Positions 9,901 through 18,543 of a stretch of DNA of 63,135 bases are shown here, in pieces; within the stretch, counting starts at the first letter, position 1, and every line of letters starts with the position of its first letter. Origin of the DNA: a virus (lineage: Duplodnaviria > Caudoviricetes). Both the position numbers and the translations under genes were made by a program. The notes under the pieces were generated by a model that saw only the letters and a program-made list of their open reading frames with translations, ran no database searches and had not been told where the DNA came from. The DNA lies in the IMG/VR virus record IMGVR_UViG_3300045934_000076, positions 1-63,135 of that record, one strand, 5' to 3'.

Positions 9901-10749
9901 ATGGACTTGACTGTGTTCATTCCGACTCGAGGGCGAATCGGGCTCAACAAGCAGATCACGCTGAGGGAGTTCCGTGATAAGCTCCCGAGCGTGAGGCCCA
10001 TCATCGTGTGTCCCGCGTACGAGGCACCCGAGCACTCGAAGTACTACGACTACGTCTGGCCGTGCCCTGTCGAAGGGATCGGGCCGACGCGGCAGTGGAT
10101 CATCGAGCAGTCGAAGACGAACGGAGTGCTGATGCTCGACGACGATCTGTACTTCAGCATGAGGGAGAACCCGTTCGAGCCGAGGCCTCTCATCCAATGC
10201 CACGATCTGGGGCCGCTGATGCAGTGGGTCAGCGATCAGCTGGATCGTGGCTACGTCCACGGAGGCATCAGCGCACGTCAGGGGAATCAGAACATTCTGT
10301 TCCCTTGGACCGACTGTCTCCGGGTCAACAACGCGCATCTGTTCAACCGCGACGTCTATCTTCGCGAGGGGATACGCTTCGACAGGCTCCCTGTGATGGA
10401 GGACTTCGACGTGACCCTGGGCCTCCTCGTGAGGGGCTACCCGAACCGCGTGGCGTACCACTACTGCTGGAGCCAGCGCGGCAGCGGGCTCTCAGGAGGC
10501 TGTTCGTCGTATCGCACGCCCGAAGTACAGGCCGAGGCGGCCGAGAAGCTGCATCAGCTCTACCCGCGCTTCGTTAAGATCGTGGAGAAGACCGCCATCA
10601 GTGGCGGCTCCGTCTTCGCGGGCAAGCCTCGCACCGACGTCAACATCTATTGGGTGAAGGCTTGGGAAGCCCGGACTCCACGCGACGGCCAGCCCGAGCC
10701 CTTCATCGGTCGGCAAGTTCCGATGAAGTTCCCTGACGAGGTGGAGTGA
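9901..10749 (+). CDS. GREB1/TET-associated-type (TAGT-like) GT-A glycosyltransferase 1
   Basis: FIPTRGR, LMLDDDL (DxD), MEDFDVTL, SGGCSSYRT motifs. Confidence 0.8.
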   Translation: MDLTVFIPTRGRIGLNKQITLREFRDKLPSVRPIIVCPAYEAPEHSKYYDYVWPCPVEGIGPTRQWIIEQSKTNGVLMLDDDLYFSMRENPFEPRPLIQCHDLGPLMQWVSDQLDRGYVHGGISARQGNQNILFPWTDCLRVNNAHLFNRDVYLREGIRFDRLPVMEDFDVTLGLLVRGYPNRVAYHYCWSQRGSGLSGGCSSYRTPEVQAEAAEKLHQLYPRFVKIVEKTAISGGSVFAGKPRTDVNIYWVKAWEARTPRDGQPEPFIGRQVPMKFPDEVE

Positions 10750-11003
10750 TGGCCATCGAAGCGATCACCCACTACGAAGTGACCTGCGACGAGTGCCAGG
10801 ATGTGCTCGTCGATGACGACGGCAGCATCCAGCTCTTCGAGAGCGAAGAAGAGGCCATTGTCGGCATGACCGACTACTCATGGATCCGTGAGAACGAAGG
10901 CACGGACCAAGAGCGCGTGATCTGCGACGGCTGTGCGGAGAACGCGGAAGAGGAGCACGAAGCTTCGAAGCTCGATGACGAAGAGGAGGACGACGATGAG
11001 TGA
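10746..11003 (+). CDS. Small, very acidic Zn-binding protein
   Basis: CDEC...CDGC, D/E-rich tail. Confidence 0.65.
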   Translation: MMAIEAITHYEVTCDECQDVLVDDDGSIQLFESEEEAIVGMTDYSWIRENEGTDQERVICDGCAENAEEEHEASKLDDEEEDDDE

Positions 11004-12027
11004 CTATCGCCAAGATCCTCCGTACTCGCTTCAAGTCGAGCTCGTCGAGGGTTGTACTCTCGCGTGTGACTTCTGTGGCATCAACGGCATCCGCGAGAAG
11101 CCGGGCCTCTTCAAGTTCATGAAGCTCGACACGGCAATCCAGATCGCTTCGCAGGTGAAAGCGCTGGACTGGAATCCACGGATCGAATTCGCTATGCACG
11201 GGGAGCCGTCGCTTCACCCACAGCTCCTCATGATCGTCGACTCGTTCCGCACAATCCTGGGGCCTCACGCGTCGATCGTGATGTTCAGCAATGGCTCCGG
11301 CTTCCTGCCACGACCCGAGCTCATCGATGAGCTCCTCGACGCCGGCCTCAACACTCTGGGCCTCGACGCCTACGAGCACGTCAACATCGTGCCTCGTGTC
11401 ATGCGAGCCTATTCCGAACTGCCGGGCAAGAACCCGGTCTACTTCTATCCCGAGGACAAGACGCAGAACATGCACTCGGGACGTCGTGTCGGCCACAAGG
11501 ACGTAGTCGTGATCCAAGACATCTTGTCTGCCGAGGAGGGCAATCACGCCACACTCAACACTCACTGCGGCGGCGGGATGAAGCCCCCCGATGGGCTTCC
11601 TCTCAAGCGACGTTGTGCGAAGCCATTCAGGGAGCTGGCGATCCGGTGGGACGGCAACGTCGCGCTCTGCTGCAATGACTTTCGTGGCGAGTTCAAGGTC
11701 GGCAACATCATGGAGATCGGCATCGACGCCGTCTGGCAACATCCCCGTATGATGGCGGCCAGGGTCAAGCTGATGCAGAGCGATCGTGGCTTCAAACCGT
11801 GTGACAAATGCACGGCGCTGAGCATGCGAGTTGGTCTCCTTCCCGACTCGAAGGGCAAGCTCGTGCTCAACGATCCCACTCAAGAAGAGGAGATGCTTCT
11901 GCAAGAAGCCGTCGCCGGGCAGCCGTACACTCCCGTCGTTCTTCGGATGTGGGAGGTCGGGAGTGGGCCGCACAACCTCATCCCTGATCGCAAGAAGGCG
12001 CTCATGGACGCCATGAAGAGGAAGTGA
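10996..12027 (+). CDS. Radical SAM protein with SPASM-like C-terminal domain
   Basis: CTLACDFC (CxxxCxxC), HGEP, and a C-terminal cysteine set CAKPF...LCCNDF...PCDKC. Confidence 0.9.
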   Translation: MSDYRQDPPYSLQVELVEGCTLACDFCGINGIREKPGLFKFMKLDTAIQIASQVKALDWNPRIEFAMHGEPSLHPQLLMIVDSFRTILGPHASIVMFSNGSGFLPRPELIDELLDAGLNTLGLDAYEHVNIVPRVMRAYSELPGKNPVYFYPEDKTQNMHSGRRVGHKDVVVIQDILSAEEGNHATLNTHCGGGMKPPDGLPLKRRCAKPFRELAIRWDGNVALCCNDFRGEFKVGNIMEIGIDAVWQHPRMMAARVKLMQSDRGFKPCDKCTALSMRVGLLPDSKGKLVLNDPTQEEEMLLQEAVAGQPYTPVVLRMWEVGSGPHNLIPDRKKALMDAMKRK

Positions 12028-16858: not shown

Positions 16859-17023
16859 TCTGTCAAGAACCGAATCATGAAGTGAGCCGACGTGCTCTCA
16901 AGAAGCTTCAAGAGGCTCTCGATAAGCATCATTTCAAGATCAACGACGTGAAAGTCGCCCTGCGCGGTCCACTCACTCGAATGAAGAACAGCCCCGGCAT
17001 TTGTCCCTTCTGCAACAGGAGCT

Positions 17024-18085
17024 ATGATGCGCGTCCTTGAAGTCTACAACGTTCACGCGGCTTTGCCGAGAGGTCTAAGGCTCCTCGAAGAGGAAGGCTA
17101 CGACGCTCCCTCACGCGTCGGCGATGTGCGAGTAGCTCCCTTCGCCGTCTGCACCTCGTATCTCCGTCCCTCACAGAAGGTGGTCCTGTGGCCGCAGCGG
17201 GACTACAATGTCGCCTTCGCCCTCTACGAAGCGCTGTGGATGCTGGCAGGGCGTCGCGACACGAAGCCGCTTGACCGCTACGTCCACGATTACACGTCAC
17301 GGTTCAGCGACGACGGCAAGAATCAACATGGAGCATACGGTCATCGATGGAGGTACTACGCTCTCGATCAGCTCGAGATGATCGCTGATCAGCTCAAGAA
17401 GAATCCGCAAGACAGGCGCTGCGTCCTCCAGATGTGGGACGTAGTCGCCGACCTCGGCTTCACAGGCAAGGACGTCCCGTGCAACACGATCGCCACCTTC
17501 CAACGAGGCAAGGACAGCGAGCTCAACCTGCACGTCTTCTGTCGCAGCAACGACATCATCTACGGAGCCTACTACGCGAACGCTTTCCACTTCGCGACCC
17601 TCCTCGAGTACATGGCGTCATGGATCGGATGTCCGGTCGGACGCTACGAACAGATCAGCGTCAACTATCACGCTTACAAGGACGTGATGGCGAAGATGAG
17701 CAAGCTCCCGAGGAGCGGTGGCGACTATCTCTCCAGCGATCCGTATTACGTCGGTGAAGTGTTGCCGACTCCACTCCCCTCTTATCACTCGTGGTGCGAC
17801 GTCATGATCCATGAGCTGCTCGGGCTGGCCGACGAGGGATTCGAGCGAGGCCGGCGTGGCGGTAGCAGTGATCTGTTCTTCGCGACAGCCGAGCGTGTCC
17901 TCTACGCCCATCACCTCTGGCGTACTCTCGAGGCTCCATCCAAGTACATCGAAGCCATCAGGGTCCTTGACGAAGTTCCTGCTCTTCAGCATCAGGACCT
18001 GACGGTCTCGATGCGTGAGTGGATCGTTCGTCGCAAGGATGCGTATCTCGCGAAGCTCGTCGTTGATCACAACGAGGGGGAGTGA
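17024..18085 (+). CDS. Thymidylate synthase-family enzyme, probable dUMP hydroxymethylase
   Basis: HGAYGHRWR, DRRCVLQMWD, DVPCN, RSNDIIYGAYYAN with the Asn of dUMP-specific enzymes; next to the 5hmdU kinase-like gene. Confidence 0.85.
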   Translation: MMRVLEVYNVHAALPRGLRLLEEEGYDAPSRVGDVRVAPFAVCTSYLRPSQKVVLWPQRDYNVAFALYEALWMLAGRRDTKPLDRYVHDYTSRFSDDGKNQHGAYGHRWRYYALDQLEMIADQLKKNPQDRRCVLQMWDVVADLGFTGKDVPCNTIATFQRGKDSELNLHVFCRSNDIIYGAYYANAFHFATLLEYMASWIGCPVGRYEQISVNYHAYKDVMAKMSKLPRSGGDYLSSDPYYVGEVLPTPLPSYHSWCDVMIHELLGLADEGFERGRRGGSSDLFFATAERVLYAHHLWRTLEAPSKYIEAIRVLDEVPALQHQDLTVSMREWIVRRKDAYLAKLVVDHNEGE

Positions 18086-18543
18086 TGAAGGAATCCGCTT
18101 TGCCATGTTATCGCTGCAAGCACGACACTGAGAACTGTATCTGTGAGGACATGTGTGCTTGTGGTCACGTTCGACGTCATCATCGTTCCAATGGCAAATG
18201 CGCGACGAACGACTACAAAACACAGCGAGCTCACTGTCAGCAGTTCGTTCCGATCTGTTCACGATGCAAGAAGGTCCTTGAGGACTGTGGCTGCGACGGT
18301 CTTCAGCCGGTTCTAAAGGAGGCGGTGGACCATCCCTCGCACTACGGCGGCGACGTCGTTCACGAGCACATCAAGTGCATCACGGCATGGGGAATCGACA
18401 ACGACTATCGCCTGGGCCAAGCTACAAAGTACATCTGCAGAGCCGGCAAGAAGCCGGGAGCCGATGCTCTGGAGGATCTGAAGAAGGCCCTCTGGTATCT
18501 CCAGAGCAAGATCGAGAAGCTCGAGAAGGAAAGAACCTCATGA
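18082..18543 (+). CDS. DUF3310 protein (T7 gp1.7-like putative nucleotide kinase) with Cys-rich N-terminus
   Basis: VDHPSHY, LGQATKYICRAGKK, EDLKKALWYL. Confidence 0.85.
   Translation: MMKESALPCYRCKHDTENCICEDMCACGHVRRHHRSNGKCATNDYKTQRAHCQQFVPICSRCKKVLEDCGCDGLQPVLKEAVDHPSHYGGDVVHEHIKCITAWGIDNDYRLGQATKYICRAGKKPGADALEDLKKALWYLQSKIEKLEKERTS

Follow-up and report, generated by a model that had tools for sequence, protein, structure and literature searches.

Which base would stand in place of thymine in a phage whose DNA polymerase gene is followed by three glycosyltransferase genes, a radical SAM enzyme and a thymidylate synthase (TS) homologue, with no evident amino acid:DNA transferase (ADDT)? 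The question is raised by positions 9901–18543 of the IMG/VR virus record IMGVR_UViG_3300045934_000076 (Duplodnaviria; Caudoviricetes), a linear record of 63,135 bases with a CheckV completeness estimate of 88%, which we analyzed in full and call the window. Thymidine hypermodifications protect phage DNA from restriction and CRISPR nucleases and are a source of DNA-labelling enzymes. To our knowledge, the worked-out pathways that start from 5-hydroxymethyldeoxyuridine (5hmdU) all involve both a phosphorylated intermediate and a transferase for amino acids or polyamines. An earlier note, made from the letters of the window, proposed that 5-hydroxymethyluracil (5hmU) or phospho-5hmU is decorated here with a multi-sugar chain tailored by radical SAM and cupin enzymes. 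Our analysis favors, at slightly better than even odds (roughly 0.55), the reading that the cluster is the glycosyl-type branch of the phage 5hmdU hypermodification pathway.

The nine genes have the order and place given in that note. All lie on the + strand directly 3′ of the family A DNA polymerase PolA (7620–9545, + strand; Pfam DNA_pol_A, 136.4 bits; phrog_17) and encode, in sequence, the glycosyltransferase GT1, a radical SAM-SPASM enzyme, a DUF550-like protein, the glycosyltransferases GT2 and GT3, a cupin-like protein, an HMUDK_hel protein, the TS homologue, and a DUF3310 protein.

Kinase and TAGT genes alternate beside HMUDK_hel

GT1 (9901–10749, + strand) is a GT-A glycosyltransferase of the TAGT family (PF20691, 41.2 bits against a cut-off of 27.5; phrog_842, E 2e-38) and the sole direct TAGT match in the record (41.5 bits in a six-frame search at E up to 10). 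Its acidic DDD motif (res. 80–82), of the GT-A DxD type, is invariant in all six aligned relatives. The HMUDK_hel gene (15525–16385, + strand) encodes a stand-alone protein of aGPT-Pplase clade 1 (PF18723) that scores 122.9 bits against a cut-off of 25, spans profile positions 3–276 of 281, and is 43–44% identical to PaMx11 gp50 and PhiJL001 gp19. The names aGPT-Pplase and TAGT reportedly go back to Iyer et al. 2013. The protein corresponds to PaMx11 gp50 and M6 gp55, which neighbor the kinase in those phages (PMC8989533, PMC5889632). It consists of the helical domain alone and has no P-loop; of the earlier label, a 5hmdU kinase-like member of clade 1, the clade stands and the kinase does not. 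Stand-alone HMUDK_hel proteins of ~280 residues are abundant, with 927 matches at E ≤ 1e-5.

We took a census of IMG/VR loci with a gene for an HMUDK_hel relative, using the best 80 of 327 (L020–L099), with all six-frame open reading frames (ORFs) scored by hidden Markov models (HMMs) from our own alignments and by phmmer in flanks of 10 kb on either side, beyond which a kinase would escape the count. A kinase like PaMx11 gp49 occurs in 59 of the 80 loci and, in these kinase-type loci, lies directly 5′ of the HMUDK_hel gene. The 59 divide into 24 that also carry ADDT, 30 with the kinase only, four with a radical SAM relative, and one (L098) with both ADDT and a GT1-type gene. A GT1-type TAGT enzyme is found without the kinase in 17 loci (GT-type), together with it only in L098 (1/80), and four loci have neither. 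The exclusion of one by the other gives a Fisher p of 1e-12, or 2e-10 over 70 distinct signatures once near-identical loci are collapsed, values that overstate independence since the census loci are mutually related. On a quick FastTree phylogeny of 88 HMUDK_hel proteins, in which two long branches join (L004 with L016), the kinase or glycosyltransferase label changes at least nine times, at least five of these being forced by well-supported branches, against a mean of ~20 for shuffled labels.

We read the TAGT enzyme and the kinase as repeatedly exchanged partners of one TS and HMUDK_hel pair. Such an exchange would be expected of two enzymes that have the 5hmU hydroxymethyl group in DNA as their common target, and for this phage the pattern points to direct O-glycosylation in the manner of base J and away from a phosphorylated intermediate. 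Glycosylation appears to replace 5hmdU phosphorylation.

Two groups of loci deserve separate mention. L098 (positions 5032–12596) is the only one of the best 80 with ADDT, kinase, HMUDK_hel, TAGT, and TS together, and its base might bear both amino-acid-type and sugar-type substituents. Where a P-loop kinase occurs and ADDT is missing from the 10-kb flanks, as in 30 loci, 5-phosphomethyl-dU (5-PmdU) might be used by the clade 1 protein.

The components of the phosphorylation route were sought in the window by several means. In six-frame searches across the entire record, none of the families ADDT (PF18724), HMUDK_HMUD1 (PF18748), Tet_JBP (PF12851), and DNA_methylase (PF00145) was matched, and tblastn placed none of PaMx11 gp46 (ADDT), gp47 (FAD lyase), gp48 (acetyltransferase), and gp49 (P-loop kinase) in the window. 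The gp49 query, positive by phmmer in 59 of 80 other loci, found no kinase in the window, an ADDT HMM from one of our alignments had no match there, and no small ORF of the window has a plausible Walker A motif. The ORF at 15006–15482 (+ strand; no Pfam or NCBIfam family) holds the position of the P-loop kinase in kinase-type loci. It was considered as a cryptic kinase and rejected, since it lacks a P-loop or Walker A motif, belongs to no family, and is without relatives in the fetched loci.

The profile searches that the earlier note had proposed as a check thus matched TAGT and HMUDK_hel and returned no ADDT in 63,135 bases. Its statement that ADDT, a pyridoxal phosphate (PLP) decarboxylase, TET, and a C5-methyltransferase are not seen in the cluster is supported for the whole record, which is ~88% complete; a PLP enzyme of another kind, a DegT sugar aminotransferase, lies outside the cluster at 39215–40291. 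The phospho-5hmU that it offered as a substrate is unlikely, given that the window has no P-loop kinase and that kinase and TAGT meet in 1 of 80 loci.

The TS homologue and nucleotide supply

The TS homologue (17024–18085, + strand) matches Thymidylat_synt with 79.9 bits against a cut-off of 24.3 and phrog_5131 with E 6e-85. Its nearest phage relatives are PaMx11 gp51 and PhiJL001 gp24 (38–39% identity), and the DNA of PaMx11 is built from 5hmdU (PMC8989533). Aligned with solved thymidylate synthases, its Cys matches the catalytic one, and its ‘YYANAF’ sequence places Asn at the uracil-specifying Asn, a position at which CMP hydroxymethylase has Asp; the dUMP-type Asn described earlier is in agreement with this alignment. 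The protein is probably a dUMP hydroxymethylase, with 5hm-dUMP as the product suggested by the identity to the PaMx11 and PhiJL001 proteins and by the constant HMUDK_hel neighbor.

The TS homologue is divergent, with scores far under the cut-offs of all NCBIfam TS equivalog models, and TS homologues that hydroxylate dCMP exist (PMC13326640). There is accordingly a slim chance that it is an ordinary thymidylate synthase or makes some other 5-substituted pyrimidine, such as a 5-hydroxy base, and that the sugars go to a different acceptor. The hydroxymethylase is favored by the Asn specificity residue, which points to uracil, by the nearest characterized lineage, that of the 5hmdU-DNA builders PaMx11 and M6, and by the constant company of HMUDK_hel, a family tied to 5hmdU DNA.

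Overlapping the end of the TS gene is that of the DUF3310 protein (18082–18543, + strand; Pfam, 42.9 bits against a cut-off of 24), which also lies 3′ of TS in L006, L008, L020, L027, and L050. A nucleoside diphosphate kinase (NDK) gene at 25017–25451 (+ strand; Pfam NDK, 125.3 bits) is a possible supply step for the modified dNTP, and the phage PolA is likely the enzyme that incorporates it into DNA.

Two features near TS genes were noted in passing. The ~640 bases between HMUDK_hel and TS (16386–17023) hold short ORFs only (16402–16578 and 16618–17040), whose coding signature is weak and which fall in no family; Rfam gives no match in the stretch either. In L004 (13704–15065), the TS homologue measures 453 residues and contains an in-frame insertion of ~83 residues between blocks that align with the TS of the window.

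HMUDK_hel has an ADDT-like motif

In all 88 HMUDK_hel sequences, from both types of branch, C267, E268, and K271 are invariant, and E263 is found in 85 of the 88. The motif to which they belong, REVEHxxCEFDKY (invariant core EVEHxxCE), resembles the ADDT motif QEVETILCKWKSH (QEVETILCK), whose residues E243, T244, and C247 are invariant in a 20-sequence alignment and have been described as metal ligands and catalytic cysteine (PMC11472151, PMC13458397). When HMUDK_hel was compared with PaMx11 gp46 by hhalign, the single best segment set E263/H264/C267 on E243/T244/C247 with a non-significant E of 0.62; the comparison with the 20-sequence ADDT profile aligned another segment, also non-significantly (E 0.48). 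Because neither comparison is significant, the argument for an ADDT-like motif is one of motif and fold only.

The HMUDK_hel model (pLDDT 91.9) has a glycosylase-like fold of the helix-hairpin-helix (HhH) superfamily. Searched with VIA, it matches the queuine salvage enzyme 7ugk with Z 10.2, and only five chains reach Z ≥ 8. Third in rank is PUGT (8z2m; Z 9.7, a value of a size that for helical proteins can reflect a shared common arrangement), superposed with a root-mean-square deviation (rmsd) of 4.0 over 211 residues, with residues 5–275 on 8–255, end-points that keep the register of the ADDT motif. The next matches are OGG, Mag1, MutY, and EndoIII (Z ≤ 8.6). Foldseek returned weak HhH glycosylase rows only (E ≥ 0.2), with no PUGT among the matches listed, and phmmer against PDB sequences gave nothing meaningful.

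We regard an ADDT-like active site in HMUDK_hel as a well-motivated hypothesis, not as a result, and the protein may itself be catalytic. The earlier statement that the cluster has no amino acid:DNA transferase holds at the level of Pfam families, but HMUDK_hel is, judged by its model, a structural relative of ADDT with a similar Glu/Cys motif.

These features open a different, and in our view doubtful, account of the chemistry. HMUDK_hel would be an ADDT-like group transferase whose Cys267 attacks C6, so that the C5-methylene is joined to a nucleophile, perhaps the hydroxyl of a sugar or else a small molecule; the role of the glycosyltransferases would be to decorate the adduct or activate the hydroxymethyl group, and the product would not be a simple O-glycoside of the base J kind. 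The invariant residues fit this account, as do the resemblance to catalytic or metal-binding positions of ADDT and the register kept by both the best hhalign segment and the PUGT match; the 30 loci with kinase and HMUDK_hel and without ADDT also call for another user of 5-PmdU. On the other side, the two profile comparisons are non-significant and disagree on the segment, a Z of 9.7 falls within what a shared helical fold can give, 5hmU has no good leaving group without a kinase, and the reaction reconstituted in vitro did not require M6 gp55, itself of clade 1 (PMC8989533).

GT2 and GT3 are divergent TAGT relatives

GT2 (~12494–13324) and GT3 (13326–14225), both on the + strand, have no Pfam, PHROG, or NCBIfam match, and GT2 has no Pfam match even at E up to 1. 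The two are paralogues of each other (34% identity, E 4e-49). BLASTP of GT1 against GT2 and against GT3 is not significant, and the relation becomes visible with profiles only: hhalign of the GT2/GT3 profile against a six-sequence GT1 profile gives a probability of 91.8% and E 7.4e-7 over 239 columns, with DDN set on DDD and ED on ED. The DDN, ED, and GGIG motifs are invariant in the GT3 family. Among ten more distant members of the GT2/GT3 family scanned against TAGT, three score above the cut-off, three below it, and four do not match.

The GT3 model (pLDDT 91.8) has a GT-A fold. Its VIA matches are led by POMGNT1 (5ggf_A; Z 14.2, rmsd 3.1 over 197 residues), with Z 13.2 to GnT-I and 12.6 to SpsA; 133 chains have Z ≥ 8, and among the matches listed nearly all are GT-A glycosyl- or nucleotidyl-transferases. 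Foldseek alone gave weak matches (E ~1e-3). Because of the profile comparison, the TAGT-matching relatives, and the GT-A fold model, we place GT2 and GT3 near TAGT, as divergent, TAGT-like members of the wider superfamily. The three GREB1/TAGT-like glycosyltransferases of the earlier note are upheld in this sense, GT1 by direct match and the other two by profiles, relatives, and fold.

The family is rare. A search of 5.8 billion clusters gave 23 close homologues of GT3 and one of 1.84 billion gave 366 representative clusters at E ≤ 1e-3, tblastn of GT3 against 50,697 phage records found no match, and the family occurs in none of the 80 HMUDK_hel loci. With a GT2/GT3 profile, three viral loci and ten from metagenomes were retrieved; three of these (L005, L014, and L015, duplicates of L004 or of its near-copy) were left out. 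In the 10 non-redundant loci kept, tblastn detected TS in six, HMUDK_hel in six (one a C-terminal fragment), GT1 in five, and the radical SAM enzyme in three. The PaMx11 kinase, ADDT, FAD lyase, and acetyltransferase were found by tblastn in none of the 10, several of which measure 1–4 kb, so that misses mean little. The GC content of these loci ranges from 30 to 57%, which indicates that the module crosses diverse host groups.

Each fetched locus has a single GT2/GT3-type gene, and the duplication is peculiar to the window. Genes found between the glycosyltransferases encode an FkbM-type methyltransferase, a HAD hydrolase, and a MobA-like NTP transferase in L007 and a GT4-like protein in L011. 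L004 has an NT5C deoxynucleotidase (a dNMP nucleotidase) and a MazG gene near TS, and L003 a hexapeptide transferase and an MT-A70 methylase. One family member, P0162 (735 aa), is a natural fusion of an N-terminal radical SAM part with a C-terminal TAGT-like domain. The radical SAM part has no similarity to the enzyme of the window, and because of this difference the fusion supports an association of radical SAM and TAGT-like enzymes in general only.

The radical SAM enzyme and a variable cassette

The radical SAM-SPASM enzyme (10933–12027, likely start 10996, + strand) scores 42.2 against 29.5 bits for Radical_SAM and 47.4 against 21.5 bits for SPASM, and a CxxxCxxC motif is visible in its translation. 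Together with the TS and DUF3310 assignments, its label in the earlier note lies above the Pfam cut-offs. All NCBIfam radical SAM models score far under their cut-offs, tblastn against the 50,697 phage records gave no match, and the nearest Atlas clusters are 94–100% viral, indicating a phage-specific family. Among solved proteins the enzyme matches BtrN best (E 1.2e-9), the radical SAM enzyme that dehydrogenates an aminocyclitol in butirosin synthesis and goes with the DegT-family aminotransferase BtrS, presumably as its partner. The window has, like that system, a relative of the radical SAM enzyme and a DegT gene; unlike it, the match covers mainly residues 219–298, the auxiliary-cluster domain, and DegT is absent from all four kinase-type records with a radical SAM relative.

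Relatives of the enzyme occur in six of the 80 HMUDK_hel loci, two of them GT-type (L020, 6e-145; L066, 3e-88) and four kinase-type (~1e-53). The latter four have no glycosyltransferase within 10 kb. Because relatives sit in such loci, a purely sugar-directed role is doubtful, and the earlier proposal that the sugar chain is tailored by the radical SAM enzyme is weakened. Its substrate may be the base, or something that both branches share; alternatively, the kinase-type relatives, which are more distant, may do a different job.

The closest syntenic relative of the cluster, L020, shares PolA (55% identity), GT1 (66%), the radical SAM enzyme (62%), HMUDK_hel (54%), and TS (44%). It has no GT2, GT3, cupin, or DUF550-like gene, and an Atu1052-like protein fills the slot, which makes the 12.0–15.5 kb region a variable cassette and not part of the core. 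Two further products of this region are leads only. The putative MazG/DUF550-like nucleotide pyrophosphatase (12024–12491, + strand) reaches 16.6 bits for Pfam dATP-dGTP_PPHyd, under the cut-off of 23, and phmmer against PDB returned non-significant rows only (dCTP pyrophosphatase 1, E 0.49), which leaves the ‘DUF550 pyrophosphatase’ of the earlier note as a suggestion. The same holds for its ‘cupin’: the candidate cupin-like protein (14356–14931, in an ORF open from 14239, + strand; phrog_4784 of unknown function, E 1e-20) belongs with ESM Atlas clusters named cupin (score 0.96) and resembles cupins weakly in structure (TM 0.42–0.46), but it has no Pfam match and no PDB sequence match by phmmer. 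Neither gene has a relative in any fetched locus, and the same is true of the ORF at 15006.

Sugar genes outside the cluster

A second group of candidate sugar genes lies between the capsid and lysis genes. It comprises a DegT/DnrJ/EryC1/StrS PLP-dependent sugar aminotransferase (39215–40291, + strand; Pfam, 363 bits), a hexapeptide-repeat (LbH) acyltransferase (40279–40836, + strand; Pfam Hexapep, 30.3 bits), and a conserved ORF 3′ of the LbH gene (40839–41516, + strand) with weak resemblance to SpoU-type methyltransferases (E 0.007). The nearest NCBIfam models of the DegT protein are LegC and PseC, both under their cut-offs, and sugar acetyltransferase models match the LbH protein under theirs. 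In the close relative G004 (L100), DegT, LbH (56% identity), and the ORF (a 42% identical homologue in the same position) are syntenic 3′ of the capsid gene. Farther on, among tail-region genes, a weak GT4-like (GT-B) glycosyltransferase (45708–46904) has Pfam scores that are all under the cut-offs.

DegT homologues occur in three of the five records with both GT1 and the radical SAM enzyme (the window, G003, and G004), and in G003 an SDR epimerase/dehydratase gene lies 5′ of the homologue; the two such records without a match are fragments with an estimated completeness of 54–60%. The homologue is found in none of four GT-type records without a detected radical SAM gene (G001 and G006–G008) and in none of four kinase-type records with one, of which one is complete. 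These small numbers do no more than suggest that the product in the lineage of the window contains an amino sugar. We also considered a cupin/DegT/LbH trio of the dTDP-3-acetamido-sugar type; this stays an idea only, as no solved structure could be detected as a relative of the cupin.

The place of these genes bears on another explanation, in which the DNA holds only 5hmdU or plain T and the glycosyltransferases, radical SAM enzyme, cupin, and DegT/LbH pair have other targets, for example proteins of the virion, glycans of the host envelope, or a small molecule. DegT, LbH, and the GT4-like gene do stand among structural and lysis genes, outside the replication module, and GT-A folds are generic. 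We nevertheless judge it improbable: GT1-type genes adjoin HMUDK_hel and TS repeatedly, in phages of 30–57% GC, and swap with the DNA kinase almost one for one, and TAGT is a DNA glycosyltransferase family by name and through its characterized T6-type members (PMC13390438).

The remainder of the record

Almost all genes of the record lie on the + strand, and its GC content is ~55–67%. Besides NDK, the rest encodes a DNA ligase, an RNase T-type exonuclease, an SNF2 helicase, a primase-polymerase/VapE protein, the large terminase, portal, and major capsid proteins, and a muramidase. Scans of the whole record found no tRNA gene and no Rfam family. The 8.6-kb cluster stretch is present, in contig form, in 12 soil-metagenome sequencing runs, and megablast of the whole cluster against the 50,697 phage records gave no match. 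Two genes at 23009–24795 match the Pam3 gp33-like (DUF7307) and Pam3 gp34-like families, which links the record to a cyanophage-type gene pair. Near the right end (58527–60658), an AAA_5 (MoxR/dynein-type) ATPase gene is followed by that of a DUF7192 protein.

A predicted pathway

In the pathway that we propose, the TS homologue would convert dUMP to 5hm-dUMP before replication, the DUF3310 protein, perhaps the MazG-like protein, and the NDK encoded at 25 kb would help raise it to the triphosphate, and PolA would place 5hmdU in DNA instead of T. After replication, GT1 would glycosylate the oxygen of the 5-hydroxymethyl group, the linkage found in base J, and would hold the place of the P-loop 5hmdU DNA kinase of M6/PaMx11-type phages. 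GT2 and GT3, present in a minority of such clusters, would probably add further sugars. HMUDK_hel, common to the kinase and sugar branches, would most likely flip 5hmU out of the helix, and because of its invariant Glu...Cys-Glu motif, like that of ADDT, it may act chemically on C6/C5 too. The DegT/LbH pair at 39–41 kb may supply an amino or acetamido sugar donor. Of the sugar-decorated 5hmU put forward earlier, a sugar-type thymidine hypermodification without ADDT is retained, but the phospho-form is unlikely and sugar tailoring by the radical SAM enzyme is doubtful.

Several points weigh against this assignment. Each chemical step is deduced from families, gene order, and co-occurrence, which are what was observed. 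In a record ~88% complete, the absence of the kinase, ADDT, TET, and methyltransferase families is not proven, and the census has the limits given above, namely 10-kb flanks and related loci. The TS sequence here does not separate a hydroxymethylase from a methylase. TAGT members may act on a sugar and not on the base, as T6-type enzymes add a second glucose (PMC13390438), so the acceptor of GT1 is drawn from co-occurrence only. The Cys-Glu pair invariant in 88 of 88 HMUDK_hel sequences fits a catalytic enzyme better than a passive partner, and the attachment chemistry may therefore differ; the dispensability of M6 gp55 and the four kinase-type loci that have a radical SAM relative and no glycosyltransferase count here as well.

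A wider proposal builds on the glycosyl-type branch and is more tentative. There may be two interchangeable functionalizations of 5hmU around one catalytic HhH-fold HMUDK_hel protein, with either a kinase or a TAGT enzyme as its partner. The window would then be the most elaborate sugar branch, with an unmeasured thymine replacement bearing a chain of up to three sugars, perhaps with an amino or acetamido sugar among them that the radical SAM enzyme, DegT, and LbH help to make.

Relation to known systems

In M6, PaMx11, ViI, PhiW-14, and SH-Ab 15599, 5hmdU is turned into 5-phosphomethyl-dU and then into amino acid or polyamine adducts by 5-HMUDK and ADDT/aGPT-Pplase2. The window shares with PaMx11 the TS lineage (38% identity to gp51), HMUDK_hel (43% to gp50), and the place beside PolA. 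Unlike the M6/PaMx11 group, it has no homologue of the P-loop kinase, ADDT, PLP decarboxylase, FAD lyase, or acetyltransferase, and has TAGT enzymes instead.

The trio of TS, aGPT-Pplase1, and TAGT near PolA is common to the window, the Alphaproteobacteria phage PhiJL001 (gp19, gp22, and gp24), and Brevibacterium phage LuckyBarnes (gp38–41), where it is known from genome annotation alone; the TAGT of such clusters is annotated ‘beta-glucosyl-HMC-alpha-glucosyltransferase’. Clusters of this composition have also been noted in genomes of HTVC023P-type pelagiphages (PMC9599517). Beyond the trio, the window has two divergent TAGT paralogues, the radical SAM-SPASM enzyme, the cupin-like protein, and DegT/LbH elsewhere, whereas PhiJL001 has Nmad5 instead. 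In LuckyBarnes (L016, 5436–9451), a TS homologue of 517 aa accompanies two adjacent TAGT glycosyltransferases and an HMUDK_hel relative (HMM E 4e-31), most likely the ‘hypothetical’ gene right after the glycosyltransferases.

Base J of kinetoplastids, made by a JBP hydroxylase and JGT, is like the predicted product of the window a sugar O-linked to 5-hydroxymethyluracil in DNA, and phage GT-A DNA glycosyltransferases structurally resemble JGT (Pyle et al., bioRxiv 10.1101/2023.12.21.572611). It differs in that 5hmU in the window would arise before replication through the TS homologue, with no dioxygenase or Tet_JBP, and in the presence of several glycosyltransferases and an HhH-fold partner. 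The pathways of T-even glucosyl-5-hydroxymethylcytosine and of 5mYOX/TET glycans share with the window TAGT enzymes, stepwise addition of sugars, and secondary glycosyltransferases and sugar-modifying genes nearby; the base of the window is by contrast of the uracil type (Asn and not Asp in TS), and a C5-methyltransferase or TET is absent. Metavirome GT-A DNA glycosyltransferases often lie near TS homologues and secondary sugar genes (the same preprint), and phage T-dioxygenase clusters also bear glycosyltransferases (PMC13229309). SP-15, YerA41, and Carin-5 have, like the window, a sugar-bearing thymidine and glycosyltransferase and nucleotide-sugar genes beside the polymerase. Their bases contain a dihydroxypentyl linker and a phosphate, unlike that predicted here, and the parts of the source drawn on mention neither HMUDK_hel nor TAGT for them (PMC12686479).

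A literature search that covered few subscription journals and no supplements found no measured glycosylated 5hmdU from such a system, no statement that kinase and TAGT exclude each other, and no function for clade 1 aGPT-Pplase. The gene-neighborhood supplements of PMC8989533, PMC9599517, and Pyle et al. may already list similar loci. The ‘possibly undescribed base’ of the earlier note is right for the base and the enlarged cluster, but the core of TS, aGPT-Pplase1, and TAGT is already in print (PMC9599517). The cluster is an unusually rich, new variant of a class already seen in genomes, and the census of kinase and TAGT genes is new.

As we interpret it, a second, sugar-based branch of 5hmdU modification accounts for about a fifth of the sampled HMUDK_hel loci (17/80) and is present in cultured phages, among which LuckyBarnes would be a convenient system for measuring the base. 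The clade 1 aGPT-Pplase gains a testable role, and two protein groups are now linked to clusters of this kind: the GT2/GT3 subfamily of TAGT, which is rare, and a phage-specific family of radical SAM-SPASM enzymes.

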